UHGV virus genome: UHGV-0099904
Source: a virus
DNA: 14,417 bases
Direction: 5' to 3' (one strand)
A model generated the notes under the pieces. The model saw only the letters and a list, made by a program, of their open reading frames with translations, was not told the origin of the DNA and made no database searches. Shown here piece by piece: positions 15 to 14,090 of this stretch (positions within the stretch are counted from its first letter, which is position 1; each line of letters begins with the position of its first letter). The position numbers were made by a program, and so were the translations under genes.

Positions 15-3000
15 ATGAACCTGTTAATCACCTCAGTGGATGGTGATAAAACCGCTGGCGCGGCGTCAGTGAATATTGGTGAATTCTACCAGGTAACTAT
101 TCAGCAGCGTAAGGATATTTCTCTTGCACTTAGCGCAGGTAAGAAATATGCAATTGTGCTGAAGGGAAGATACCTCCTTGGAGAAGATTCTTATCAGGTT
201 AATACCGCGTCACATATTCATGCGGCTGAATTTGTTGCCAGAACCTATACCGATTCATATCAGTTAGGAGATGGGGAACTGCTTGTTTGTACGGTGAATA
301 TCCCTGCTGGCGTATCTGCTATTACTAAGGAAATGATAGATGTATCCGACCGCATCGATCTCGCGATAGGCATTGAAATTTCCGACTCTGTAACCAGTAC
401 CAGAAGTGATGTCGCTGCAAGTTCGCTGGCGGTTAAAAAAGCCTACGATCTGGCTAAAAGCAAGTATACGGCGCAGGATGCAAGCACAACACAAAAGGGA
501 TTAGTTCAGCTCAGTAGCGCAACTAACAGCGACAGCGAAACAATGGCGGCTACCCCTAAAGCCGTTAAGTCTGTAAAAGAGCTGGCTGATACCAAAGCGC
601 CAATAGAAAGCCCGAGTCTGACAGGAACGCCAACCGCGCCGACGGCAGCGCAAGGTACAAACAGCACGCAGATCGCAAATACAGCCTTTGTTAAGGCAGC
701 TATAACGGCACTTATCAACGGTGCACCTGGCACACTGGATACGCTTAAAGAAATAGCGGCTGCGATCAATAACGACCCGAATTTCAGCACAACTATCAAC
801 AATGCTCTGGCTCTTAAAGCTCCTTTAGCAAGTCCTGCATTAACGGGAATACCTACTGCGCCTACCGCTGTACAGGGTACGAATAACACGCAGATTGCTA
901 CGACCGCTTATGTAAGAGCTGCTATCTCTGCATTGGTCGGCTCATCACCTGAAGCTCTTGATACCCTGAATGAGCTTGCAGCAGCACTGGGCAATGACCC
1001 GAACTTTGCGACAACAATGACAAATGCGCTGGCAGGCAAACAGCCACTTGATGCAACTTTAACCGCGCTTGCTGGTCTTGCGACAGGCGCAAATAAATTG
1101 CCGTACTTTACCGGTACAGACACTGTTTCTCAGACTGACTTAACGTCAGTCGGTCGCGATATTCTGGCCAAAACAAGCGTTCTTGCTGTTATCCAATACC
1201 TTGGTTTAAGAGAACTCGGTACCAGTGGTGAAAAGATCCCCCTGTTGAGCACGGCTAACACATGGAGTGCGCGCCAGACTTTCAACGGAGGGATCACCGG
1301 GGCGCTGACAGGGAACGCCGACACCGCGACGAAATTGAAAACAGCACGCACGATTGGCGGTGTGGCATTTGATGGCTCGGGCAATATCAATCTTCCAGGT
1401 GTAAATATAACAGGTAACCAGAACACCACGGGGAATGCTGCTACCGCGACAAAACTTGCGACGGTAAGAAACATCAACGGTGTTAAGTTTGATGGTTCTG
1501 CGGACATTTCGATACCAACAATTACGTCCAGAGGGCGTGTTACTGCGCTCACCGGTACAACACAAGGTGCTGCTACTGGATTGCAGATGTATGAGGCGTA
1601 CAACAATAGCTACCCGACCACGTATGGCAACGTATTGCACATGAAAGGTGCGAGTGCTGCTGGTGAGGGCGAGTTGCTTATTGGCTGGAGTAGTACGAGC
1701 GGTGCACATGCGCCGGTTTTCATTCGCTCCCGAAGAGATCACACTGATGCGGCATGGTCAGCGTGGGCGCAGGTATATACATCAAGGGACTCCATTCCTG
1801 GTGTGAATGCCACTGGCAATCAGAATACAACTGGCAATGCAGCAACCGCTACAAAACTACAGACGGCAAGAACTATCGGCGGAGTTAGCTTTGATGGTAC
1901 TGCGAATATTAATTTACCTGGTGTTAACGTTGCGGGTAATCAGAATACATCCGGTAACGCGGCTACAGCGACCAAGTTACAAACCGCGAGAACTATAAAT
2001 GGGGTGTCGTTTGACGGTTCTAAAAACATTGAGCTAACTCCAAGGTCTATAGGCACGATCAACTCTACAACCATGTCTTTTATTGGTGGTGCAGGATGGT
2101 TCAAGCTGGCAACTGTAACCATGCCACAGGCCAGTTCCGTGGTTTACATAAGTCTGATTGGTAGTTCTGGATATAATGTTAACTCCCCTATGCAGGCTGG
2201 TATATCTGAACTTGTTCTTCGTGCGGGAAATGGGAATCCAAAAGGTCTTACTGGTGCGTTATGGCGACGGACATCGGTTGGATTTACTAATTTTGCATGG
2301 GTGAATACATCCGGTGATACCTATGATGTTTATGTTGAAATAGGTAATTACGCCACTGGTGTAAATATCCAGTGGGATTATACCAGTAACGCCAGCGTAA
2401 CGATTCATACATCACCAAATTACACAGTAGATAAACCAACTGGTCTTACTGATGGAACGGTATATGTCATTTACAGTTCGCACATTAAACCGACCGCCAC
2501 GGATGTCGGCGCATTACCAATAACCGGAGGAAATCTCAACGGCGGTTTAACGGCTACTGGTGAGATCGTTTCAAGATATGCAAATGGTTTCCGCATTGCC
2601 TATGGAAGCTACGGATTCTTTATCCGAAACGATGGTTCAAACACATATTTCATGTTGACCAATTCGGGTAACAGCCTGGGAACCTATAATAATTTAAGGC
2701 CGCTTATCATTAACAATGCCAATGGTACTGTTACGATCGGTAATGGGCTCAATGTTACTGGCGGCATCAATGGTAGTTTGAACGGCAATGCTTCAACGGC
2801 TACGAAGTTGCAAACTGCTAGAAAAATAAGCGGCGTGTCTTTTGATGGTTCTGCTGATATAACACTAACAGCTGAAAATGTATCTGCTTTTGCTCTACGC
2901 GCTACTGGAACTTATGCCGATACTAGTGGTGCGGTCCCGTGGAATGCCGAATCAGGTGCGTATAATGTTACACGCTCCGGGGATTCTTATATCGTTGCAA

Positions 3001-4034
3001 ATTTTTATACAGGCGTAGGTAGTTGTCGGACTCTCCAAATCCGAGCGCACCATAAAAATGGTGGATTGTATTACCGTTCATCACGTGATGGCTATGGGTT
3101 CGAAGAGGGCTGGGCTCAGATATATACTAAAAAAGACAGCATCCCTGGTGTGAATACAACTGGTAATCAGAACACTACTGGCAATGCTGCAACTGCAACA
3201 AAACTGCAAACAGCACGCACAATAGGCGGAGTGTCATTCGATGGTAGTGCCAATATCGACCTGCCGGGCGTGAATAAAGCAGGTAATCAGAGCACTACCG
3301 GTAATGCCGCAACCGCAACGAAACTACAGACTGCACGCACTATCAACGGTGTTCAGTTTGATGGTTCTGCAAATATTACTTTAACTGCTGCTAACCTTGG
3401 CCTGAGCGATTCAAGCGGATATGTTGGGCGTTTGGTGAATACCCGGGTTTTCACTTCATCAGGTACGTATACCCCAACCCCAGGAACAAAACGGATCAGG
3501 GTCACAATAACGGGCGGCGGTGGCGGAGGGGGCGGCTGCAAGGCTATATCCAATAATGAAACGTTTTTCGGTGCTGGCGGCGGGGCAGGTGGGACAGTAA
3601 TCACCACGCTGATCCTGACGAAGGATAGTTATCCTGTCACTATCGGCGCAGGTGGGGCCGGCGGCGTTAGTGCGACGACCGGCCTCAAGGGCGGTGATAG
3701 CTCGTTCGGATCGGTAATAGCCCCTGGTGGTGAAGGTGGCGGGAAAGTGGGAGTTACAAACACAAACGGCGGTAACGGCGGTGTGCCAAGTACTGGCGGT
3801 ATCAACATCATTGGTGGACATGGAGGCGACGGTCAGTCCGGAAATATCGGCGTCAGCGGTGAAGGCGGAACATCGTACTGGGGGGGCGGTGGACGCGCAG
3901 GCGCTGGCGGTGGTGTTAGTGGTAAGGCATATGGTTCAGGTGGCGGTGGCGCATACGATGCCGGTTATAGCGGAACCAGTATGACGGGCGGGAAAGGTGC
4001 TGCTGGGATTTGTATTATCGAGGAGTTTGCATAA
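15..4034 (+). CDS. Phage tail fiber protein, 1339 aa; the frame has no upstream stop before the window edge, so the true N-terminus may lie upstream
   Basis: Single 4 kb ORF. Translation shows hallmark tail fiber motifs: KGLVQLSSATNSDSETMAATPKAVK near aa 160-185, PTAPTA..GTN.TQIA.TA(F/Y)V shaft repeats, repeated GNQNTTGNAATATKLQTARTIGGVSFDGSANI units, and a Gly-rich C-terminus. A tail fiber assembly gene follows with a TAATG stop/start overlap. Confidence 0.9.
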   Translation: MNLLITSVDGDKTAGAASVNIGEFYQVTIQQRKDISLALSAGKKYAIVLKGRYLLGEDSYQVNTASHIHAAEFVARTYTDSYQLGDGELLVCTVNIPAGVSAITKEMIDVSDRIDLAIGIEISDSVTSTRSDVAASSLAVKKAYDLAKSKYTAQDASTTQKGLVQLSSATNSDSETMAATPKAVKSVKELADTKAPIESPSLTGTPTAPTAAQGTNSTQIANTAFVKAAITALINGAPGTLDTLKEIAAAINNDPNFSTTINNALALKAPLASPALTGIPTAPTAVQGTNNTQIATTAYVRAAISALVGSSPEALDTLNELAAALGNDPNFATTMTNALAGKQPLDATLTALAGLATGANKLPYFTGTDTVSQTDLTSVGRDILAKTSVLAVIQYLGLRELGTSGEKIPLLSTANTWSARQTFNGGITGALTGNADTATKLKTARTIGGVAFDGSGNINLPGVNITGNQNTTGNAATATKLATVRNINGVKFDGSADISIPTITSRGRVTALTGTTQGAATGLQMYEAYNNSYPTTYGNVLHMKGASAAGEGELLIGWSSTSGAHAPVFIRSRRDHTDAAWSAWAQVYTSRDSIPGVNATGNQNTTGNAATATKLQTARTIGGVSFDGTANINLPGVNVAGNQNTSGNAATATKLQTARTINGVSFDGSKNIELTPRSIGTINSTTMSFIGGAGWFKLATVTMPQASSVVYISLIGSSGYNVNSPMQAGISELVLRAGNGNPKGLTGALWRRTSVGFTNFAWVNTSGDTYDVYVEIGNYATGVNIQWDYTSNASVTIHTSPNYTVDKPTGLTDGTVYVIYSSHIKPTATDVGALPITGGNLNGGLTATGEIVSRYANGFRIAYGSYGFFIRNDGSNTYFMLTNSGNSLGTYNNLRPLIINNANGTVTIGNGLNVTGGINGSLNGNASTATKLQTARKISGVSFDGSADITLTAENVSAFALRATGTYADTSGAVPWNAESGAYNVTRSGDSYIVANFYTGVGSCRTLQIRAHHKNGGLYYRSSRDGYGFEEGWAQIYTKKDSIPGVNTTGNQNTTGNAATATKLQTARTIGGVSFDGSANIDLPGVNKAGNQSTTGNAATATKLQTARTINGVQFDGSANITLTAANLGLSDSSGYVGRLVNTRVFTSSGTYTPTPGTKRIRVTITGGGGGGGGCKAISNNETFFGAGGGAGGTVITTLILTKDSYPVTIGAGGAGGVSATTGLKGGDSSFGSVIAPGGEGGGKVGVTNTNGGNGGVPSTGGINIIGGHGGDGQSGNIGVSGEGGTSYWGGGGRAGAGGGVSGKAYGSGGGGAYDAGYSGTSMTGGKGAAGICIIEEFA
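597..1040 (+). repeat. Tandem duplication of a ~74-aa shaft module inside the tail fiber gene (aa 195-268 and 269-342)
   Basis: APIESPSLTGTPTAPTAAQGTNSTQIANTAFVKAAITALINGAPGTLDTLKEIAAAINNDPNFSTTINNALALK versus APLASPALTGIPTAPTAVQGTNNTQIATTAYVRAAISALVGSSPEALDTLNELAAALGNDPNFATTMTNALAGK. The protein copies are clearly related while the DNA differs at many codon third positions. Confidence 0.8.
1299..1514 (+). repeat. First pair of ~40-aa TATKL fiber repeats (aa 429-500)
   Basis: TGNADTATKLKTARTIGGVAFDGSGNINLPGVN followed by ITGNQNTTGNAATATKLATVRNINGVKFDGSADISIP. Confidence 0.8.
1791..2036 (+). repeat. Second pair of TATKL fiber repeats (aa 593-674)
   Basis: IPGVNATGNQNTTGNAATATKLQTARTIGGVSFDGTANINLPGVNVAGNQNTSGNAATATKLQTARTINGVSFDGSKNIEL. 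Confidence 0.8.
3141..3383 (+). repeat. Third pair of TATKL fiber repeats (aa 1043-1123); a single copy also lies at about 2769-2867
   Basis: IPGVNTTGNQNTTGNAATATKLQTARTIGGVSFDGSANIDLPGVNKAGNQSTTGNAATATKLQTARTINGVQFDGSANITL. Near-identical in protein to the 1791-2036 copy, with many synonymous DNA differences. Confidence 0.8.
3492..4031 (+). repeat. Glycine-rich C-terminal tip domain of the tail fiber (aa ~1160-1339); GGN-rich low-complexity DNA
   Basis: Runs GGGGGGGG, GAGGGAGG, GAGGAGG, PGGEGGG, GGNGG, GGHGGDG, GEGG, GGGGRAGAGGG and GSGGGG alternate with short non-Gly segments. Includes a G7 homopolymer at 3880-3886. Confidence 0.75.
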
Positions 4035-4444
4035 TGAATGCGTCATATGCAGTTATTGAAAATGGGATGGTTGTGAATGTCATTGTCTGGGATGGCGAGG
4101 CTGAATTCACAGTGCCGGATAATCAGCAGCTCATTAATATTTCTGATATCAGTGAGCAGCCCGGAATCGGCTGGGTGTATTCAGACGGGGGATTTACTGC
4201 ACCACCCACTCCGGAACGTTCTCATGATGAACTGGTAGCTGACGCTGAACAGAAAAAACAGTCGCTGATTGATACCGCAATGGCTTCCATTAGTCTTATT
4301 CAACTGAAATTACAGGCCGGGCGGAATCTTACGCAGGCTGAAACCACCCGTCTTAACGCTGTGCTGGATTATATCGATGCGGTGACCGCAATGGATACCA
4401 GCACTGCACCAGATGTCAATTGGCCAGCGTTCCCGGAGGCGTAG
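4034..4444 (+). CDS. tfa: Tail fiber assembly protein (lambda Tfa / P1 U-like chaperone)
   Basis: C-terminal DTSTAPDVNWPAFPEA closely matches the lambda Tfa C-terminus as I recall it (DTSTAPDIEWPAVP). AGGAG at 4021-4025 sits 8 nt before the ATG at 4034, which overlaps the fiber TAA. The ORF-track start at 4010 is a TTG and is less likely. Confidence 0.9.
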   Translation: MNASYAVIENGMVVNVIVWDGEAEFTVPDNQQLINISDISEQPGIGWVYSDGGFTAPPTPERSHDELVADAEQKKQSLIDTAMASISLIQLKLQAGRNLTQAETTRLNAVLDYIDAVTAMDTSTAPDVNWPAFPEA

Positions 4445-4588
4445 TCCATTTAATAAAATATCTGGATCGCTGGAAGCATCGACTGGTTCCAGTGCGTCCG
4501 GATAATCGAGCTACAAGTTATCAGATGATTACCGTTCATGCCTCAAGAGTGAGCGCATGCTGCACCCACGCAAATTTAACTTTCATAC

Positions 4589-4642
4589 GACCAGAGTTTA
4601 CCTATCAAAAGCCTTTTTCACTCTGGTCGTTCAGCCTTTTTT
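4589..4642 (+). terminator. Candidate terminator or operator: 9-bp perfect inverted repeat GACCAGAGT/ACTCTGGTC with a 22-nt spacer, followed by a T6 run
   Basis: Arms at 4589-4597 and 4620-4628; TTTTTT at 4637-4642. It lies about 145 nt after the tfa stop. The loop is long for a classical intrinsic terminator. Confidence 0.3.
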
Positions 4643-4724
4643 CCACTCGCCTTGTCCTCAAAAATTAGCTCACATCCTGCGCTTTCAAGAGCGTTTCGTT
4701 GTAAAGCAGTGTTTTGTTCATTTG

Positions 4725-4752
4725 TTGATACGCGTACATAGCCTATTAGCAT
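4725..4752 (+). promoter_or_regulatory. Weak sigma70-like promoter candidate (TTGATA, 16-nt spacer, TAGCAT) in the AT-rich spacer upstream of the lyd/dar block
   Basis: Hexamers read directly from sequence in a 435-bp noncoding AT-rich region that precedes a long co-directional operon. A phage late-activator-dependent promoter is equally possible and I cannot place it by eye. Confidence 0.2.
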
Positions 4753-4879
4753 ATTTTCTGCTCACTATCGTTATTTATAGCAAGCTGCGGATTTTAATTA
4801 ACAAAAACCAGTATGTGTGGAAATCACAAAGTACATACCGTTTCCCAATGATATTTAATTCACTATTAAGGAAATAGTT

Positions 4880-5161
4880 ATGTGTGATTTCACAATAATG
4901 CTCCTCTCCATCCTTGGCGGGGTGCATTCGTTTCTGAATGGGGTTCGTGAAAAACGTTACGAAGCGTCATGCAGGCAATTGATGGCCGAGTGTATTGCTG
5001 CCGTACTTGCAGGCTTTATAGGCATGTATTTCGCGGAATATAAGGGTATGGATGAAAGTCTTCAGAATTGCGTGACTATTATTTGCAGCATCAATAACAG
5101 GCTCATTCTTGAAAAGTTACAAAGGATTATCGATTCGTACCTCAATAGAAATGCCTCTTAA
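4880..5161 (+). CDS. Small two-TM membrane protein, holin-like; paralog of the downstream LydA-like gene
   Basis: AAGGA at about 4868-4872 sits 8 nt before the ATG. Hydrophobic segments at aa 5-20 and 33-51. Aligns with the 5229-5558 product (LLSILGGVHSFLNGVRE versus LLSVIGGIGTFLMDVRD, with shared AV.AG, I.S.N and S.LN positions). Confidence 0.55.
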   Translation: MCDFTIMLLSILGGVHSFLNGVREKRYEASCRQLMAECIAAVLAGFIGMYFAEYKGMDESLQNCVTIICSINNRLILEKLQRIIDSYLNRNAS

Positions 5162-5202
5162 GCAACAAATGACCGGTTGAGAAGTTACTTTGCATACCAT
5201 TA

Positions 5203-5222
5203 CCTCCTGACAACGTAGGAGG
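5203..5222 (+). promoter_or_regulatory. Stem-loop CCTCCT-gacaacgt-AGGAGG that pairs the Shine-Dalgarno of the following holin gene with an upstream anti-SD
   Basis: 6-bp perfect complement; the AGGAGG arm at 5217-5222 is the only SD for the GTG start at 5229. Confidence 0.3.
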
Positions 5223-5558: not shown

Positions 5559-5998
5559 TTGGCTGGGGTGTATGCGTTCTTGCGTTAGCCTTAGCCGATC
5601 GCTATTTGCTAAAACGCAAGGACATCACGCATTTAGAACTTGGTGATGTGGAAATTAAACCGGGTTTCATCCGGGTGCCGTTCAAGTACCGGTCTAAATT
5701 CCCGTTTTTGCGCGGCGCAACGGTCAGATATTGGATCCGCGATGTTCAGAAGCCGACGACAGTGATTGAAGGTGAACAACGTTGTCTGACGTCGGCTGAA
5801 CAGGGCGAAAACAGTGAATGGTTGTACATACCCACTGAATATATGGGTAAAGGAGAGCGACTGTGGCATTTCAACGTCATGGTTACGCATGGCGACTCGT
5901 TCATTAACCCGTTGTATCGGATTTTCCCTGTTACTCAGCAAATCCGCAGAAGTTACGTAATAAATCTCGCACAGGATGTGTCAGATGACGAAAAATAA
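5555..5998 (+). CDS. lydB: Signal-anchored protein, 147 aa; candidate holin antagonist (P1 LydB-like)
   Basis: AGGGAGG precedes the ATG. N-terminal hydrophobic segment MIGWGVCVLALALA. Position between the holin and the hdf/darA block matches P1 gene order as I recall it. Function is inferred from synteny only. Confidence 0.45.
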   Translation: MIGWGVCVLALALADRYLLKRKDITHLELGDVEIKPGFIRVPFKYRSKFPFLRGATVRYWIRDVQKPTTVIEGEQRCLTSAEQGENSEWLYIPTEYMGKGERLWHFNVMVTHGDSFINPLYRIFPVTQQIRRSYVINLAQDVSDDEK

Positions 5999-6587
5999 GT
6001 ATGCAACGGTCGATTTTGACCAGGTTAATGAAAAGGGGCTGAAATCCCTTATCGCGGCGATCAATAAAACCGGTGTTACGGTAATTGAGGTTGACTCCAG
6101 CAACCGCGCAACAACGAAAGATGGCGTTAAAGTTAAAACCGCAAAGCTGGTTCTTAACGACGGACAAATTCTTGCCATACAGGTAAACGATACTGGCGAT
6201 ATATCGTCTGTGAAACTGAATGGAAAAGCTATTCCTAACGCTCAGTCGCCGGATATCAAGACGCTTGGTACCGTCATGGGACAGGCGGCCCGCAAAAACT
6301 CCGCAAAATTCCAGAAATCACTGATCGCCAAAGCGAAGCGTGTTGCCAATCCGGTAGACAAGAAACCGGCAGTTAAATCCAACTTTCAGCGCCTGCAAGA
6401 AGCAAAACAGCGGAATGCTCAGGTGGTTGCCGCTTATAAGTCCGCGCAGAATTCGGTGTCTTTCAATCAACAGCAGATCACTGATTTGCGGGCGAAGCTG
6501 GATAAGGAGACGGGCCGACTCAATAACGAAAAGGCACGGAATGGCGAACTCAAACGTCGTCTTAAGCAACTGAAAGCAGGAAATTAA
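5976..6587 (+). CDS. hdf: Hdf-like virion/head-morphogenesis protein, homologous to the middle of the downstream DarA-like protein; the start may be the second ATG at 5985
   Basis: Shares LNDGQILAIQ / LSDGQTISIL and ...KNSAKFQ... segments with the 6589-8508 product, followed by a K/R/Q-rich predicted coiled coil. The stop is 1 nt before the next ATG. Confidence 0.55.
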   Translation: MCQMTKNKYATVDFDQVNEKGLKSLIAAINKTGVTVIEVDSSNRATTKDGVKVKTAKLVLNDGQILAIQVNDTGDISSVKLNGKAIPNAQSPDIKTLGTVMGQAARKNSAKFQKSLIAKAKRVANPVDKKPAVKSNFQRLQEAKQRNAQVVAAYKSAQNSVSFNQQQITDLRAKLDKETGRLNNEKARNGELKRRLKQLKAGN

Positions 6588-6588
6588 C

Positions 6589-8508
6589 ATGGAACAGTTA
6601 AATATCAATAAAGGGGTGACGATCAAGCCTGGGCTTGACGTGCTTCCCCCGCCAGTGACTGATGATGAATATCGCGCATTAATGGCCGGTGAGGACCGCT
6701 ATCTGATGACGGAATCCAACACCCTGGAGGAAATCGAGGCTACGTTCTTCTATGACACGCCGATCCACTGGTGTGCTACGGATTTACTGGAGGCGATTAG
6801 TTCTACTCGTTTGCAGTTACACCGGACCATGCAGGCATTTGTCCGGGCATTGAACCAGAAGCTGAATGGTACCGGAATCTCTGCGGGGAGTGATAAAACG
6901 GGGGAGGTGGCCCAGAGCGGCGCGCGCGCGATCGGCGGTGCTGAAATTGGCCGGGCACGTAACGTTAACGGGCTGCCGGTCCTGCCAGCCATTATTCCGC
7001 TCAGTGATGGTCAGACTATCAGCATTCTGTTTCATAGCCCGACAGCGGAAAACCGGATCACCAATAGCGATACGCTGGTTGCTTTCCAGTTCTTACTGAA
7101 TAAAAAAGACGTTACTCACACCGTTGCTCCGATGAGTGGACGTGATATGACGCTGGCGCAGGTCACCATGAAACTTGCCAACCTTGCAGAGAAAAACTCG
7201 GCAAAATTCCAGCGTGCGCAGAAGAAGAAAAAAGCCCTGGTTGATGAAATAACCCAACTACAGGCTGACAGTGACCAGAAAGAGGATGCCATGAGCGACC
7301 TCGCGGATCAGGTGGCAGCGGTAGAAGGGCAGAAGGTAGATCTGGAGCAGAAAATTAACGCTGTTGCATCGGAAGCGGATTCTCTTTATGAAGAGAATGA
7401 GCGTTTGCAGACGGAGATTGATCAGCTCAATCGCACAGGTGGGCGCGATACCATTGATCCAGCGGGGATGACTGGTGGGCACTCGCGCGCGCTGACGGAT
7501 CGCCTTGCCAGTATCAAAAATCGTATGCATATGAACGGGGAAGTGACGCTCAGTAATGGAGCATCAATGAAGCAATTCATTGAGGACGGCGAAGGGTATA
7601 TCCAGTTAACCGATTCGGATGGCAGCGTGTACATGATCAAGGCTAAATCCATACAGGGTGTGGACATGGCAGATGCGATCGGCAAGCTGTTTAAAGCCTA
7701 TAAAGCGGGTAATGTATCGGAATATCTGGTCCAACCAGAAGAACATAAACCGGAAAACGTCGAACCTGAACCAGCGGAGGATACCGGTAGCTCTTCGCCT
7801 GAACCAGAAGTCTCTGTAGGTGCATATCGATATGCCTTGCAAATGCGTCCGGCGGCCCCTGGCGCAATACCTGAAGGTAACAAAGCAATTCTGCCGCGCC
7901 CTGATGAAGGTGACCCGTATTATGAATATGCACGCTACGGCATTGCTACTTACGATACCCCGCTTTCTGATCAGCAAATGAGTGAGTACGACCTGAAGTT
8001 ATTGCCTCGCGAGGATTCTTTCGACTTCCTGGCGAAGACACTTACTAATGGTCCGTTTGGCAAATATGCACAAAAAGCTCTGGATCTGGCCACCAGCTCA
8101 CCAGACGAGTTCCGCGTAATGCTGAAAACTCAGTTTCAAAAAACTTTCCCCAATATTGCGTTTCCGGGGGGCGCTGGCACCGAGAAAATGGTGCAGAGCA
8201 TGATCAATGCATTGCAGGCCGAAGTCGGTGAGATTACTCAGCCAGAACCTGCCCCGGCACAGCCTGATGAAACGGTTAGCGAAGCAGATGCAGAGGCTAA
8301 TAAAGCCATTGAATATCTCAATAACGTGATGGATATGCAAAGCACTGACATGGCGGAGATCCGTAACGCCCGGGGTAATGTCCGGGAAGCGATTGCAGCC
8401 CTTCAGGCTGCCGGGCGTTTTGAGGAAAACGAAGAGCTGGTTAATGGCGCTGCTCGCCACCTGGCTGATCTGCTGGTAGCAATCCAGAAAGCGGGGGTAG
8501 CGGCATGA
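6589..8508 (+). CDS. darA: DarA-like antirestriction and capsid morphogenesis virion protein, 639 aa
   Basis: AGGAAA RBS. Large protein with a central coiled coil (QLQADSDQKEDAMSDLADQVAAVEGQKVDLEQKINAV...) and acidic Pro/Glu-rich linkers. Size and position (hdf, 639-aa protein, 121-aa protein, 995-aa protein) match my recollection of the P1 darA operon. ATGA overlap with the next gene. Confidence 0.6.
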   Translation: MEQLNINKGVTIKPGLDVLPPPVTDDEYRALMAGEDRYLMTESNTLEEIEATFFYDTPIHWCATDLLEAISSTRLQLHRTMQAFVRALNQKLNGTGISAGSDKTGEVAQSGARAIGGAEIGRARNVNGLPVLPAIIPLSDGQTISILFHSPTAENRITNSDTLVAFQFLLNKKDVTHTVAPMSGRDMTLAQVTMKLANLAEKNSAKFQRAQKKKKALVDEITQLQADSDQKEDAMSDLADQVAAVEGQKVDLEQKINAVASEADSLYEENERLQTEIDQLNRTGGRDTIDPAGMTGGHSRALTDRLASIKNRMHMNGEVTLSNGASMKQFIEDGEGYIQLTDSDGSVYMIKAKSIQGVDMADAIGKLFKAYKAGNVSEYLVQPEEHKPENVEPEPAEDTGSSSPEPEVSVGAYRYALQMRPAAPGAIPEGNKAILPRPDEGDPYYEYARYGIATYDTPLSDQQMSEYDLKLLPREDSFDFLAKTLTNGPFGKYAQKALDLATSSPDEFRVMLKTQFQKTFPNIAFPGGAGTEKMVQSMINALQAEVGEITQPEPAPAQPDETVSEADAEANKAIEYLNNVMDMQSTDMAEIRNARGNVREAIAALQAAGRFEENEELVNGAARHLADLLVAIQKAGVAA

Positions 8509-8870
8509 CACTATCAGCTATTGAGTTAATGGATCTCAGCGATAAGTTGGATGCTCTGATGTCCAAAGCGGCTACCGCGAGTGGCATGGAGTTGCTGGAT
8601 ATCAGCGATGAAATTGACCAGATCATGCAACAGATGGGGTACGGTGTGTCCGGCGGCAGTAGTGGCGAGGAAAAACAACCTGCGGTACATGATGGTGTGC
8701 CAAAACTGGTTGCTGATTTCCTGGCTGATAAATTCGTCGATCAGAGCACCGATGCATTTATCGGTACCTTGCAGGATTTGAGTCAATATGTTGGCACATA
8801 CATCGACCTGGACCAGGTTAAACAGCACACGGCGGCATGGATAGCCGCCAACATTAAAGAGGCAGCATAA
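8505..8870 (+). CDS. ddrA: DdrA-like small acidic protein, 121 aa
   Basis: Translationally coupled to the upstream gene (ATGA). Acidic, predicted helical. Named by position in the dar-like operon only. Confidence 0.5.
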   Translation: MTLSAIELMDLSDKLDALMSKAATASGMELLDISDEIDQIMQQMGYGVSGGSSGEEKQPAVHDGVPKLVADFLADKFVDQSTDAFIGTLQDLSQYVGTYIDLDQVKQHTAAWIAANIKEAA

Positions 8871-8882
8871 GGCGTAACAGGG

Positions 8883-11870
8883 ATGAGCTTAAGCGATCAG
8901 GTGGTGATGGCCACCAGCATAGAAACGCTGATCGAGCTGCTAAAAAACCTGCCCGATTACGGGCGGGTTTCGTATGTGGTGACAGCGAAGGGAGACGAGG
9001 TAAAAACAGCGTTTGATATCGTCGATGCCTCAGCTCTTTTGGTATCCAATACTCTGGACGGGAAAATTAATCCAGACTATCCCCAGGAACTTCAGCCGCG
9101 CGACCGGACCCGCGCATCCAGCCTTCTTCAGGTCAACCAGATATCCAAGGATTTGCGTCCTGCCCAGCTTACCGATTCCGGTTTATCCAGCCATGGCGCG
9201 CCAATAATTGGTGAGGACAATGCCGTTGAGTCAGGTAATGGGCGGACCATGGGGATCATCAAAGCCTATCAGGACGGTAATGCGGATCGGTATCGGGAGT
9301 ACCTGATTGAACATGCGACCGAATTCGGCATACGGCCTGAAAAGGTTGAATCAATGACGGCTCCGGTACTGGTGCGCCGCCGGTTAACGAAGGTTGACCG
9401 TGTTCAGTTTGCCAAGGACTCAAATATTTCTGATCTCCAGGAAATGGCAGCCAGTGAAAAGGCTTTTGTTGATGCCGACAGCATAACACCGGCGATGATG
9501 GCGTTGTTTAACCCGTCAGAAAGCGGAGATCTGCTTAGCCGCAGTAATGACGCGTTTATTCGCGGATTCATGACGCAAGTTGGTGCCACACAGGCTGCTG
9601 GCCTTGTAACGGAAGATGGGCGACCAACACGGCAACTTGTAGACCGTATACAAAACGCGATCTTTGCCAAGGCATATAAGGATGCGCGCCTGGTAAGGAT
9701 GGTTGCAGAAGAACCTGATCCGGATATGCGTAATGTTCTGACGGCGCTTAATGCGGCAGCCAATGATTTTGTCCAGATGCAGGCTTTATCAGGAGAAGCG
9801 CACAAGCAGGCTGTGACAACTATTGTTGATGGCATTGAGACAGCGGATAGCCTCGATAAAAAGGCGCTGGCGGCATTGAAAGATGCGGTAGACCTGGTAA
9901 GGCAATCGAAGGAGTCAGGCCAGCATATTACCGATGTTATTGCTCAGGGGGATATGTTCAGCGAAACGGCCCCGGAAGTGAAAGCACTCGCGTTGTTCAT
10001 CGTCGCGAATAACCGTAGCGCGAAGCGTATGGCCACCGCCTTTAAGTTGATGGCTCAACGTATCAATGATGAGTTACAGCACCAGGGCCAGGCGCTGGGG
10101 GATATGTTTGGCGGCGGCGATGTGTCGTTACAGGATATCCTTCGCCAGGTGTCTCAGGAACTGGAATACGAAGGCATGCAAGGGATATCCGGCGGTCTTT
10201 TCGAGTCCGTTTCCGGCGGTAGTTACAACGGTGTTGCTCCGTATACCAGTTTGCTATTACATCGGGCATCCGGCATCAAAGACATTATTCATCTGATCAG
10301 GCTGCTTTCCCGCACAGATCACCAGGATGAACAGCTTGTACAAGTGCTTGCGCATTTTGTTCGAATGCCTGTTGCCGAAGTGAAAAAATGGTGCCGATTA
10401 TTCGGTATCAGCAATTCGTTACTTCGCGGCTTGTTAAATCACGCATCCTCCCTTGGGCGCGATGGCTTTGACGAGATAGCGCAGGCGATAAAAAACGGAG
10501 ATATGCCACCAGCTATTGACTGGTTTTCCATTCGCCCAACCAGGGTGAAAGCATTCCTTAGCGCGGCGCATTCGGCATCACCATTGGCAGAAATGGTTCA
10601 GAGGTTGTCGCTCATATTCACAGACCATACCGCGTTGGGTGATCTGACTCTGGACGAGATGAAAGAAGCCTCCATTCAGTGGGCCGATCAACAAAATGAG
10701 GTTAACTCAGACTTCTTGCCAGCATTCAGGAAGGCCGTTAGTAAAGCGGATGATGCCCGTGGAATTCTGAAGGCATTTAAGGCATTGCAAAGTCGGGTTA
10801 ATAAACATGTCGGTGATATCGATGGGGTAACGGCGGAAGGCAGGGATATCCTTAAAGAGCACGGCATAACGCCAGAGTTTATTGATGAGATCAGGACGGA
10901 TATGCAGCGTGAGGTCGTATCGTCCCTGCAAATTGTAGCCAGAGCGTTGGCGGATGCTAATCCGAAGAGTGCGGCCATTGTTAACCGGGTTATTGGTGAT
11001 ATTGAAGCATCGGAGGGCATGGGGGCGCTGAAACTCTTCCTTTCGCGAGCGTTTAATCCTAACGGCAATATTCTCCCTGGCATTATTGGTGAGGCTAAAA
11101 AGTATGTCAGTGAAGAAGAACTTGAGCAGCTTGACCAACTACTTAAGCGATTCTCATATAACCCGCAGACACGCTGGCAAATGAATCAGCGAGGTATGGG
11201 TTCGGTCCACGAGAAAGTGTTATCTGCCATGAACAGTGCGATCGCAAACTCATCCGTATCTGAAGAAAAAGCTCTTGAGTGGGCCGACTCTTTTATCACG
11301 GAAGAAGTGGAAGAAGCCCGCGCTGGACAGAATGGTGGGATAGACCTGCGCAAGGAACTTGCTGATATTTATCGCCTGACCGGCGGGAAAATATCGACCT
11401 TATCAAAGGTGGTTCACCACCAGGGAAGGGCATATGCAAATCTTAATGGTGTTGTTGCTGTCAATTTGAACGATGAAAATGCAAGTGCACTGTGGCACGA
11501 GCTGGGTCATCATCTTGAGTACAGTAACCCTGGTTTGTTAGAGAAAGCCCGGTCATTCCTGAAGGCCAATGTTGAAGGGGATAAGCCATCTTTCGTTAAT
11601 ATCGGTGGGCGTGGCAAGCCTGAATGGTGCTTCAGATCTCGATTGAGTAATATTTATATGGCGAAGGTATACCCGCCAGCCTCAGTAAGTAACACCGGGA
11701 AAATTCGGCAGAAATCCCCGACTATTTCCAAAACGTCAGCAACGGAAGTATTCTCTATGGCTCTTCAGTTGTATCATGACAAAGAGGCCGCTGCCGCATC
11801 ACTGATGAATGGTGACGGATTGCTGGAACTGTTATTAGGTGTGGCAAAGGAGCTAAATAATGCAGATTAA
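8883..11870 (+). CDS. ddrB: DdrB-like large virion protein, 995 aa, with a zincin HExxH motif and a possible ParB-like N-terminal domain
   Basis: Uninterrupted 3 kb ORF. HELGH at nt 11496-11510 (WHELGHHLE, aa 872-876). N-terminal segment VESGNGRTMGIIKAY resembles the ParB/Srx G-x-x-R signature. Operon position and length fit P1 DdrB as I recall it. Confidence 0.65.
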   Translation: MSLSDQVVMATSIETLIELLKNLPDYGRVSYVVTAKGDEVKTAFDIVDASALLVSNTLDGKINPDYPQELQPRDRTRASSLLQVNQISKDLRPAQLTDSGLSSHGAPIIGEDNAVESGNGRTMGIIKAYQDGNADRYREYLIEHATEFGIRPEKVESMTAPVLVRRRLTKVDRVQFAKDSNISDLQEMAASEKAFVDADSITPAMMALFNPSESGDLLSRSNDAFIRGFMTQVGATQAAGLVTEDGRPTRQLVDRIQNAIFAKAYKDARLVRMVAEEPDPDMRNVLTALNAAANDFVQMQALSGEAHKQAVTTIVDGIETADSLDKKALAALKDAVDLVRQSKESGQHITDVIAQGDMFSETAPEVKALALFIVANNRSAKRMATAFKLMAQRINDELQHQGQALGDMFGGGDVSLQDILRQVSQELEYEGMQGISGGLFESVSGGSYNGVAPYTSLLLHRASGIKDIIHLIRLLSRTDHQDEQLVQVLAHFVRMPVAEVKKWCRLFGISNSLLRGLLNHASSLGRDGFDEIAQAIKNGDMPPAIDWFSIRPTRVKAFLSAAHSASPLAEMVQRLSLIFTDHTALGDLTLDEMKEASIQWADQQNEVNSDFLPAFRKAVSKADDARGILKAFKALQSRVNKHVGDIDGVTAEGRDILKEHGITPEFIDEIRTDMQREVVSSLQIVARALADANPKSAAIVNRVIGDIEASEGMGALKLFLSRAFNPNGNILPGIIGEAKKYVSEEELEQLDQLLKRFSYNPQTRWQMNQRGMGSVHEKVLSAMNSAIANSSVSEEKALEWADSFITEEVEEARAGQNGGIDLRKELADIYRLTGGKISTLSKVVHHQGRAYANLNGVVAVNLNDENASALWHELGHHLEYSNPGLLEKARSFLKANVEGDKPSFVNIGGRGKPEWCFRSRLSNIYMAKVYPPASVSNTGKIRQKSPTISKTSATEVFSMALQLYHDKEAAAASLMNGDGLLELLLGVAKELNNAD

Positions 11871-12177
11871 AATCGCAGCGCCATTAGGCGGAGATGCCAT
11901 TATCGAATTTGATGATAATGAAGAAGTTTCCGGGCGTTTAAGCATTATCTCCGGTGACATTACCGAGGACATGATCGCTGAAGCCATAGCTGGGGCAAAT
12001 CCCAATAGCTATATGGGATTCGTTAACACCCTTGATGCTCTCGCAAGTGATGTTCTCCGAACGCTGCATCTTTACGCTGGCTGGTTTGTTGATTGGCCAG
12101 CAGTAGAGGGTGGCGATGAGGACGACGACGATGACGACGATGATTTTGGGGATCATGTAGACCAGATCGTATATTGA
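11860..12177 (+). CDS. Small, strongly acidic protein, 105 aa, ending in an Asp8 run; candidate DNA-mimic or virion protein
   Basis: Strong AAGGAG RBS 8 nt upstream of the ATG; the start overlaps the ddrB-like stop by 11 nt. About 28 D/E versus about 3 K/R residues. A terminator hairpin follows. Confidence 0.6.
   Translation: MQIKIAAPLGGDAIIEFDDNEEVSGRLSIISGDITEDMIAEAIAGANPNSYMGFVNTLDALASDVLRTLHLYAGWFVDWPAVEGGDEDDDDDDDDFGDHVDQIVY
12121..12144 (+). repeat. (GAY)8 trinucleotide repeat encoding Asp8, inside the acidic run DEDDDDDDDD (12115-12144)
   Basis: gac gac gac gat gac gac gat gat read directly in frame. Confidence 0.9.
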
Positions 12178-12179
12178 AG

Positions 12180-12205
12180 AAATCCCGCCAATCGGCGGGA
12201 TTTTT
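12180..12205. terminator. Hairpin between convergent operons, candidate bidirectional terminator
   Basis: AAATCCCGCC-aatc-GGCGGGATTT (10-bp stem, 4-nt loop) with a 5-T run, three of them inside the stem. It sits 3 nt after the + strand stop and 6 nt after the minus-strand stop. The minus-strand reading has only a weak T-rich tail (TTCTTC). Confidence 0.65.
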
Positions 12206-12208
12206 ACC

Positions 12209-13303
12209 TCACGAGAAGCTTTTTTCTGATGTCAGCCAACAGTGCTCGTGCAAATCTCTTGGTGGTTTTTCGACAAATGCCTCTTCAGCCACATCCTGCC
12301 AGGGGATTTGTTTAGCCCATTCAGCTATAGCGTTATGGTTTGCCGAGAATAACGGTATTGTATAGGCCTTCAGCCAGTCTAATGTGCTGGAGTTGTGTTT
12401 TTGAGCGTGATGTTTCGCATGGTGTTTGGCGATCACGATCGTAGGCACTACCCATTTACTACCGTCAGTCATTGTGAAGTGCATATTACGGGGAACAGAT
12501 GACTTTTCCATCAACTCCCGAATCCCGGGAAATTTCCCCAAGATCAATCGGCGATATTCATCGCTATTGCGCCCACCAAACTCTTTGGCTTTGAATTCAA
12601 GATATGCTTCAGAAACGAGAGGTGAATCCTCTGTGTTTAGAGTTAGCGCCGTGAAAAAACCAGCAGGATTGTTTTTACTATGGGCCAACCGGTGATGCGA
12701 ATCATAAAAGTACCCTTTCTCGCGTTCCGATGGTTTCGACAGCAACAGCAGGCGCGAGTCATAATTGGTTAAATTGCCAGTTATCACTGCATGAGCGCGA
12801 TCGCTGATTTCCGCCGAGTTAATAACGATGAAAAGATCGTGCGGTCCAGTAAAACCAGCCAGAGACTCTTCGTTATTCAGACAATAGGTTATATAGACGC
12901 ATCCCCATGTTTCACTGATATGCACCAACCCTTTGTCAGGGTGTATTCTGAAATAATTGCCAAGAAAAGGGTGTTTTTGGGTAACTCGCTCCCAATAACG
13001 GAACATATAGTCAATTATTGTTTTTCGACTATCGTTAATCGCAGGAGAAACAACCACTGTACGGGAACACGAATACAGTATTGTTTGCAGGATGCTAATC
13101 ACTGCCACAATAGAGGTTTCCCCAATACCATGTGGTGTGGTGGCAGTGACTTTGGCTCCGGTGTTCTTTATCGCGTTAATAATTTTTGCTTGATGAGGTG
13201 TTAACTCAATATCAAGCAACTCTTTTGCTGCCAGTTCCCAATTGTCTTTATACCGTTCTATCAGTGCTAACCAGGCAGATTCATTCTGTATACGATTAAT
13301 CAC
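12209..13303 (-). CDS. Terminase-large-subunit-like ATPase-fold protein with degenerate Walker A and B motifs, 364 aa
   Basis: LTPHQAKIINAIKNTGAKVTATTPHGIGETSIVAVISIL...RTVVVSPAINDSRKTI...DLFIVINSAEIS parallels the T4 gp17-type N-terminal ATPase (YQ..., RQLGKTTVVA..., IYIDECAF) as I recall it, but with GETS in place of GKT and NSAE in place of DE. Overlaps the upstream gene by 8 nt. Confidence 0.55.
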   Translation of the reverse strand: MINRIQNESAWLALIERYKDNWELAAKELLDIELTPHQAKIINAIKNTGAKVTATTPHGIGETSIVAVISILQTILYSCSRTVVVSPAINDSRKTIIDYMFRYWERVTQKHPFLGNYFRIHPDKGLVHISETWGCVYITYCLNNEESLAGFTGPHDLFIVINSAEISDRAHAVITGNLTNYDSRLLLLSKPSEREKGYFYDSHHRLAHSKNNPAGFFTALTLNTEDSPLVSEAYLEFKAKEFGGRNSDEYRRLILGKFPGIRELMEKSSVPRNMHFTMTDGSKWVVPTIVIAKHHAKHHAQKHNSSTLDWLKAYTIPLFSANHNAIAEWAKQIPWQDVAEEAFVEKPPRDLHEHCWLTSEKSFS

Positions 13304-14090
13304 TTTCCACCTCTTCCGTGGTGTTTTCTTGCAGTTCTGTTAATGCAGCACGACATAGGTTCCGGGCATTGGCTATAGCCACACTTTTGACTTCATCCGT
13401 CATCGTGCAGGTAATGTACTGATCGAGTTCTTCAGCGCGGATGATGCTTTTGCCAATCAGAAACTGTATTTGCCAGAGCAGATCGGCATCCATAATCAGA
13501 ATTTCTGCCGGGCCTTCAGGACCAGCCGGGAAGGAAACATAAGACTGTTTGCCCAGGCCGATAACTCGACAACTTGCTTCAAGAATTGCGCGATTGAGGT
13601 CTGACTTTGTAACTGAAACAGGTTGATTTTCACCTGCGATTACGCCGTTGACATGGATGTGGAATGGCATGTAGCTTGAAATTCGCTCTACTTTCCATAC
13701 GCCAGCAAGCGATCCTTCATGCAGCACAATGGGGGTAACCGCGAGTTTCATCTCACCATATAACTGCTGGCAGATAGCTGGATTGCTGAATACATCCAAA
13801 GGTTCACACTCAAACAGCGGCGCAATCTGTATGAGGTCCATCATGGTCATACCAGGGGTACGAGCAGTAATGAATCTGCGCATGCCAGTATCCATTGTGC
13901 GCCAGATAGCTACACCATGCTTTTTGCTCACTTCTTCAGTAAAGCCAAGGTGGCACATGATGGTTTTTTCGATAGCCAGATCAGAGATAGAAACCTTTTC
14001 GCCAGGTACACCATCATTATTGATGGTCACTTCTACACTCTGGCCATTACGCAGGCGGTATTGAATGGTTTTAGTATTTTGTGCTGTCAT
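13296..14090 (-). CDS. Hypothetical protein, 264 aa, co-transcribed with the terminase-like gene
   Basis: Long ORF with a plausible weak RBS (GAGAAAAGA) before the ATG. Ends inside the start of the next gene. I see no recognisable motifs. Confidence 0.55.
   Translation of the reverse strand: MTAQNTKTIQYRLRNGQSVEVTINNDGVPGEKVSISDLAIEKTIMCHLGFTEEVSKKHGVAIWRTMDTGMRRFITARTPGMTMMDLIQIAPLFECEPLDVFSNPAICQQLYGEMKLAVTPIVLHEGSLAGVWKVERISSYMPFHIHVNGVIAGENQPVSVTKSDLNRAILEASCRVIGLGKQSYVSFPAGPEGPAEILIMDADLLWQIQFLIGKSIIRAEELDQYITCTMTDEVKSVAIANARNLCRAALTELQENTTEEVESD

Follow-up and report, generated by a model that had tools for sequence, protein, structure and literature searches.

Phage P1 hxr, the hyper-acidic last gene of a P1-like darA operon, as a candidate partner of the DdrB peptidase half

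Results

The hyper-acidic ORF at the end of the darA operon

We analysed a 14,417-nt stretch of virus genome UHGV-0099904 (hereafter the window), in which a small, highly acidic open reading frame (ORF) follows genes of the Dar anti-restriction system of phage P1. By sequence comparison, the window derives from a P1-like phage-plasmid (Punavirus) and the acidic ORF is the gene known in phage P1 as hxr (P1_gp021, YP_006490.1; ORFVIII of AJ000741). An earlier note on this DNA could assign the product to no named family, yet the gene is already catalogued: the function-unknown PHROG family phrog_2292 matches the window protein over its full length (1-105 of 105 positions, E 8.1e-61), and the protein is 95-97% identical to P1-type Hxr proteins. 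At the DNA level, a megablast search with window positions 11500-12500 returned 19 phage records at 97-99% identity, including P1, P7, SJ46 and RCS47. In the P7 records AF503408.1 and NC_050152.1 the features beneath the ddrB/hxr match carry the odd names prt and odaA.

The late promoter upstream of hdf, darA, ddrA, ddrB and hxr (Table 1) is base-for-base the same as that annotated in AJ000741 and lies ~6.6 kb 5' of hxr. No sigma-70-like promoter was detected before hxr on the plus strand between positions 11000 and 11860. An intrinsic terminator hairpin with a predicted free energy of -19.3 kcal/mol (z = -5.2) begins directly past the hxr stop codon, and in the P1 record AJ000741 a terminator is annotated after ORFVIII, the final ORF there. 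Because a matching late promoter stands upstream and a terminator follows right after the stop, we take hxr to close a late operon of ~7 kb. It lies inside the dar operon driven by this promoter, and the earlier note was thus right in placing it at the end of an antirestriction operon.

The hxr product, translated from an ATG, contains 19 Asp and 7 Glu (26 acidic residues) against one Lys and two Arg and has a computed net charge of -23 and an isoelectric point (pI) of 4.05. It is the most acidic ORF product of the window, with 25% Asp plus Glu against at most 17% in the others. An Asp8 run extends without interruption over residues 88-95. Translation of hxr is coupled to that of ddrB: an AAGGAG box within the last ddrB codons stands 7 nt before the hxr ATG and the two genes overlap by 11 nt. 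The acidity of this 105-aa protein, its Asp run and its coupling to ddrB through a strong ribosome-binding site had all been described in the earlier note and are borne out here, with only its charge estimate of about -25 in need of adjustment. A programmed +1 frameshift that would fuse DdrB to Hxr was also considered, but the ddrB/hxr overlap shows no obvious slippery site.

Conservation of the Hxr family

A profile search with HMMER, run exhaustively over 1.84 billion representatives, recovered only 16 Hxr proteins and a word-indexed search of 5.8 billion sequences recovered 15, one cluster by itself holding 848 member sequences. Diverged members (31-46% identity) come from Cronobacter phage JK004, a Citrobacter genome, a Leclercia plasmid, the E. 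coli plasmid pMTY1586 and metagenomes. A search over one genome per species gave 2 Hxr loci only, and querying viral contigs with the distant member P0022 turned up no Hxr locus.

The earlier note had reasoned that a lack of conserved homologues, together with no effect on any defence system, would speak against its proposal for the protein, and homologues do exist. The reading frame is kept in lineages down to ~31% identity, and the ratio of nonsynonymous to synonymous substitution rates (dN/dS) in the core is 0.2-0.3 wherever dS is unsaturated. Among 84 P1-like copies of hxr, variable core codons comprise 11 with synonymous changes only and 9 with an amino-acid change, and the last ten residues show few replacements, mostly conservative hydrophobic swaps. 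A comparison of Asp-run length, which the earlier note had suggested, shows that the run varies from 4 to 9 Asp among the same 84 copies, always in frame. Taken together, retention of the frame in distant lineages, the low core dN/dS and the in-frame variants of the Asp run argue that hxr is not a chance ORF.

One metagenomic P1-like contig (L003, 8001-8555) encodes a 184-aa Hxr made of two tandem domain copies, with the acidic linker shortened in the first copy and an OmpD-like porin gene downstream.

In the searchable literature we found no experimental work on hxr and no hxr-specific mutant, only annotation tables and an entry in a CRISPR interference (CRISPRi) screen, in which hxr is non-essential, as are all other dar genes. 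A recent cryo-electron microscopy (cryo-EM) paper on DarA and Hdf names six Dar proteins but makes no mention of Hxr.

Predicted anatomy of Hxr

Hxr is predicted to consist of a folded core and a disordered acidic tail. In the AlphaFold2 model, built from a 10-sequence alignment, core residues 1-80 are predicted with moderate confidence (block-mean predicted local distance difference test score, pLDDT, ~69-89) and adopt a beta-beta-beta-alpha-loop-alpha topology followed by a short beta strand. The core has a conserved length of ~77-82 aa across Hxr lineages, and residues P8, G53, V55, N56, L66, R67, W75, W79 and P80 are invariant in the family. Its net charge is -10 in the window protein and -3 to -11 in the family. 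Residues 84-105 are predicted to be disordered (pLDDT <50). In all Hxr lineages the tail is 19-23 aa long, and carries a net charge of -7 to -13. Its last three residues are, in order, a hydrophobic one, Val or Ile, and Asn or Tyr; the rest of the tail sequence is not conserved. Whole-protein net charge in the single-domain members is -11 to -23.

Searches for relatives beyond the family gave nothing firm. The window Hxr has no Pfam or NCBIfam match at E up to 0.1 and no PADLOC match, and sequence and profile searches of the PDB returned nothing better than E ~0.1-1. The model likewise found no match by Foldseek against the PDB (best E 2.0) or in a fold search against BFVD (best E 0.17). A Pfam match to BofC_C in two of the 11 Hxr members (E 0.027) was below any threshold and was ignored, and a paralogous relationship to DdrA was ruled out (hhalign probability 0.1%).

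Linkage of hxr to the peptidase half of DdrB

DdrB, encoded by the gene coupled to hxr, has an N-terminal module of ~450 aa with the ddrB-ParB domain and a C-terminal zincin module with the motif HELGH at residue 872. This C-terminal zincin peptidase (MPTase) was predicted by Iyer et al. (PMC5512222) to process DdrB to its 76-kDa packaged form. Short forms of DdrB (~450-480 aa) that are without the peptidase half occur in phage D6, in ~117 D6-like plasmids and in Vibrio, Photobacterium and Acinetobacter elements, and since the short form stands alone we regard the full-length protein as a fusion of two separable modules with a junction at residues ~445-475. Short forms were seen at loci L094 (5992-7356), L095, L099 and L100.

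Wherever the context is readable, the Hxr homologue is encoded directly 3' of a gene for a ddrB-ParB protein, with the exception of the short contig L004, which has no ddrB nearby. The overlap of the two genes is 11 nt as a rule (including loci L088-L093 and L098), 14 nt in JK004, 17 nt in L003 and ~2 nt in pMTY1586, and the arrangement AAGGAG-N7-ATG is present at every true ddrB-hxr junction recovered, including those of lineages with saturated synonymous sites. Hxr and DdrB also diverge at similar rates (44-46% and 43-60% identity, respectively).

A local hidden Markov model (HMM) scan found Hxr in nine of nine loci with full-length DdrB or its C-terminal half and in none of the five loci without that half, of which four have short DdrB only and the fifth, in phage VAP7, has only a distant MPTase homologue. 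Among these loci hxr, with its conserved coupling, co-occurs with the DdrB peptidase module only. The contrast between D6 and pMTY1586 is instructive in this respect: the two have a common backbone and DarB proteins that are 95% identical, yet the DdrB C-terminal half and Hxr are present only in pMTY1586. Hxr therefore tracks the C-terminal half of DdrB and not DarB, and co-inheritance of Hxr with DarB is ruled out by D6, which carries DarB without Hxr.

Immediately after its HExxH motif DdrB has a basic block at residues 901-950. This is the sole strongly basic 50-aa block in an otherwise acidic protein, with a charge of +9 in the window and of +4 to +7 in five diverged homologues.

Rearrangements were seen at some of the compared loci. 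A distant P1-like element (L092) has a gene for a HicB-like antitoxin on the opposite strand (3985-4425), between ddrA and ddrB, and its ddrB-hxr junction is intact. In Escherichia albertii plasmid p2RM9974 (L101, 4552-7945) gldA replaces the N-terminal half of ddrB while the C-terminal half and hxr are kept, probably as a remnant. The metagenomic phage contig L102 encodes a stand-alone homologue of the DdrB peptidase (146-2109; LWHELGHHLE, BLASTP E 7e-16), and right after it comes the gene for a 152-aa acidic, proline-rich protein with a net charge of -18, a weak parallel to ddrB-hxr. As a relative of Hxr this 152-aa ORF, also considered at L103, was rejected (hhalign probability 0.4%), leaving a loose analogy. 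The 90-aa gp181 of Vibrio phage VAP7 (L096, 3756-4028; oddly labelled 'tetraspanin-15'), encoded after the distant MPTase homologue, looks like the Hxr core by eye; it was dropped at an hhalign probability of 0.35%, a value obtained with a family of two members, too few for a profile.

Other features of the window

Coordinates of the features discussed here are given in Table 1.

Table 1. Genes and sequence features of the 14,417-nt window
Feature	Position	Strand	Remarks
Tail-fibre gene, then tail-fibre assembly gene	15-4034 (tail-fibre)		ORF and Pfam analysis
Two LydA-type holin genes and lydB	between tail-fibre assembly gene and hdf		ORF and Pfam analysis
Late promoter of the darA operon (P1)	5182-5220	+	-22 signal AAGTTACTT, -10 TACCAT
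hdf	5976-6587		ORF and Pfam analysis
darA	6589-8508		ORF and Pfam analysis
ddrA	8505-8870		ORF and Pfam analysis
ddrB	8883-11870	+	995 aa; upstream gene coupled to hxr; Pfam PF18763, E 1.9e-39
DdrB residues 901-950, basic block	11583-11732	+	+9; directly after HExxH
Shine-Dalgarno box AAGGAG	11847-11852	+	Within last ddrB codons, 7 nt before hxr ATG
hxr coding sequence	11860-12177	+	105 aa and stop; orthologue of P1 hxr (ORFVIII)
hxr start/ddrB stop overlap	11860-11870	+	11 nt; ddrB stop codon 11868-11870; translational coupling
Folded Hxr core, residues 1-82 (predicted)	11860-12105	+	AlphaFold2 model m6b766c4e2c3c and alignments
Disordered acidic C-terminal Hxr tail, residues 83-105 (predicted)	12106-12174	+	EGGDEDDDDDDDDFGDHVDQIVY; net -13; ends I-V-Y
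Asp8 run, residues 88-95	12121-12144	+	GAC/GAT codons; after D86-E87; length-polymorphic
Intrinsic terminator hairpin	12178-12205	+	12-bp stem; directly past hxr stop; darA operon end
Gene for 364-aa protein	12209-13303	-	phrog_5902
Gene for 264-aa protein	13296-14090	-	phrog_2326

P1-like genomes cease to be homologous to one another at the hxr stop codon or terminator (12175-12205). Past hxr lies variable cargo, with a porin gene or other genes at the same spot in other lineages. In the window this cargo is represented by the genes for the 364-aa and 264-aa proteins, neither of which has a PADLOC match. We considered whether these genes might be an uninterrupted form of P1 isaA/isaB, which was ruled out for the 364-aa protein as it has no similarity to IsaA or IsaB. 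The 364-aa protein matches the terminase-large-subunit family phrog_2 only weakly and in part (E 7e-9), yet some GenBank records call it 'terminase large subunit'. This name probably over-annotates what is an accessory gene of an ATPase- or nuclease-like kind.

Upstream of the late promoter, the interval 4557-5161 contains an ORF for a very basic 106-aa protein (pI 10.9) with no family match, and the second LydA-type holin gene lies at 4880-5161. No cin invertase or invertible tail-fibre segment was seen in the window between the tail-fibre genes and lydA. A putative antisense ORF within ddrB (9404-9835, minus strand) corresponds to P1 iddB.

Discussion

Hxr is best read as an unrecognised accessory member of the known P1 Dar anti-restriction system. 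As to what it does there, the account we prefer, and put forward tentatively, is that Hxr is a stoichiometric partner of the peptidase half of DdrB, either a chaperone or an immunity-like inhibitor. Hxr would be made late in infection at a ratio of ~1:1 with DdrB through translational coupling, and its folded core of ~80 aa would bind DdrB while the flexible, polyanionic tail of ~20 aa and its hydrophobic tip cover a basic surface. The best candidate for the dock of the tail is the conserved basic patch beside the HExxH site; alternatively, the tail would lie on a surface that binds nucleic acid. Hxr may thereby restrain premature proteolysis or DNA binding until DdrB has been processed and loaded into the procapsid. 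Conserved coupling and the restriction of Hxr, among the loci scanned, to those with the peptidase module speak for such a partnership, as do the similar divergence of the two proteins, the conserved basic block next to HExxH, the retained length, charge and hydrophobic end of the tail, and the intact ddrB-hxr junction in L092. We also count in its favour that the other products of the darA operon are head-packaged Dar proteins.

Several considerations weigh against this account. The co-occurrence is confounded by adjacency, because a single deletion or cassette swap would remove the DdrB C-terminal half and hxr together. What the sequences show is coupling, co-occurrence and conservation; binding of Hxr to DdrB and a regulatory effect on it are proposed, and the choice of DdrB residues 901-950 as the dock for the tail is conjecture. 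The parallel at L102 may be a coincidence, as the acidic protein encoded there is not detectably homologous to Hxr. Finally, knock-down of hxr causes no plaque phenotype on a K-12-derived lab strain; we regard this last result as uninformative since knock-down of ddrB likewise gives none.

The earlier note had proposed instead that the protein is a DNA mimic. In this reading, which we consider rather unlikely, Hxr is a free-standing polyanionic mimic or decoy that blocks host DNA-binding defences such as type I restriction-modification (R-M), BREX or RecBCD, and it may act after injection alongside the other Dar proteins or late in infection. Part of the proposal is supported: core and tail are both acidic, the acidity is conserved in the family and so is the anti-restriction operon context. 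Disordered acidic tails with hydrophobic tips, such as those of E. coli SSB and T7 gp2.5, are moreover known to compete with DNA for binding clefts. Against it, Hxr resembles neither Ocr, ArdA nor any solved structure in sequence or fold, and few acidic positions of the core are conserved. Expression from a late promoter, with no promoter of its own nearby, is the wrong timing for a mimic unless the protein is packaged, and Hxr is not listed in the 27-protein P1 virion proteome or its supplement (PMC9024508), where a two-peptide cut-off meets a protein with one convenient tryptic peptide. That absence is weak counter-evidence, because the only cleavage sites of Hxr are K4, R26 and R67, and DdrA barely passed the same cut-off. 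A DNA mimic also leaves the strict linkage of Hxr to one half of DdrB unexplained. A more elaborate version, in which Hxr is a seventh Dar component with a new fold that is loaded and injected with DdrB, its poly-Asp tail a decoy for a host DNA-binding defence such as type I R-M and its slippage-prone Asp run a means of tuning tail length in an arms race, we judge unlikely.

A role as a packaged internal component of the head appears improbable. Hxr might, for instance, serve the basic Hdf as an acidic counter-ion or as a spacer, or it might help in DNA ejection, comparable in this to T4's acidic internal peptides. Every other product of the operon is located inside the head, Hdf is strongly basic (net +21) and the cryo-EM study reports low-resolution unassigned density around DarA-Hdf pairs, all of which would fit. 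Hxr is nevertheless undetected in virions and its gene is non-essential, and Hdf and DarA are retained without Hxr in P1-like elements of the D6-like, Vibrio and Photobacterium groups, from which it follows that Hxr is not a general head requirement.

The P1 reference record annotates hxr as a "possible repressor; homolog of Xre". Later records repeat this label, whose sole support is a note in the P1 record of 28% identity to Xre over ~58 residues. That Hxr is an Xre-type helix-turn-helix (HTH) repressor is very improbable: none of 11 Hxr members matches an HTH family in Pfam or NCBIfam at E up to 1, the fold is predicted with beta strands and not as a five-helix bundle, no repressor is among the fold-search matches, 26 acidic residues against three basic ones make electrostatics unsuited to DNA binding, and the gene is the last of a late structural operon. 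The label is unsupported and probably wrong.

The reading of Hxr as a partner of DdrB would matter for several reasons. P1 is a workhorse among phages, and phage-plasmids of its type, some of which carry resistance genes, are frequent in E. coli and Salmonella. Dar is the textbook case of injected anti-restriction proteins. A strictly co-inherited, co-translated acidic partner of the DdrB peptidase half would offer a handle on the processing of DdrB and on the loading of DarB, for which DdrB is needed. The analysis also puts right a "repressor" label that is 20 years old and continues to pass into new records. Were the tail to prove a DNA decoy after all, Hxr would represent a new structural class of anti-restriction protein.

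Comparison with known systems

The closest comparison is with P1 itself. The window copy and P1 hxr are the same gene and agree in their place behind ddrB, in the overlap and in the terminator; they differ in that the window protein has Asp8 and 105 aa whereas P1 Hxr has Asp5 and 102 aa. Past the terminator the window DNA, as judged from the 364-aa protein, is unrelated to the isaB-IS1-isaA region of P1.

Ocr (T7 gp0.3) and ArdA resemble Hxr in being small, very acidic, borne on mobile elements and found in an anti-restriction context, and differ from it in that no profile or fold match connects them. Both form rigid dimers that imitate B-DNA with the carboxylates on their surface, and both are expressed first on entry. 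In contrast, about half of the charge of Hxr is on a tail predicted to be disordered, and its gene stands at the end of a late operon. In its predicted architecture the tail resembles those of SSB and T7 gp2.5, which are disordered, acidic, ~10-20 aa long and hydrophobic at the end, and which are known to bind partner proteins at basic or hydrophobic pockets, in competition with DNA. Hxr has neither the oligonucleotide/oligosaccharide-binding (OB) fold of these proteins nor homology to them, and its tip reads hydrophobic-Val/Ile-Asn/Tyr where theirs read IPF or DF.

Within the Dar system, Ulx is a small helper encoded beside the very large effector DarB and needed for DarB packaging; unlike Hxr, it was detected in P1 virions. 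The immunity or inhibitor proteins of polymorphic toxins, colicins and barnase, such as the Im proteins and barstar, offer a further analogy. Their partners are nucleases whereas the proposed partner of Hxr is a zincin peptidase, and no homology of Hxr to any immunity family was found. Like Hxr, they are small and acidic and are encoded, in coupled fashion, just 3' of the C-terminal catalytic domain of a large effector, and a parallel between polyvalent phage proteins and polymorphic toxins has been drawn by Iyer et al. (PMC5512222).

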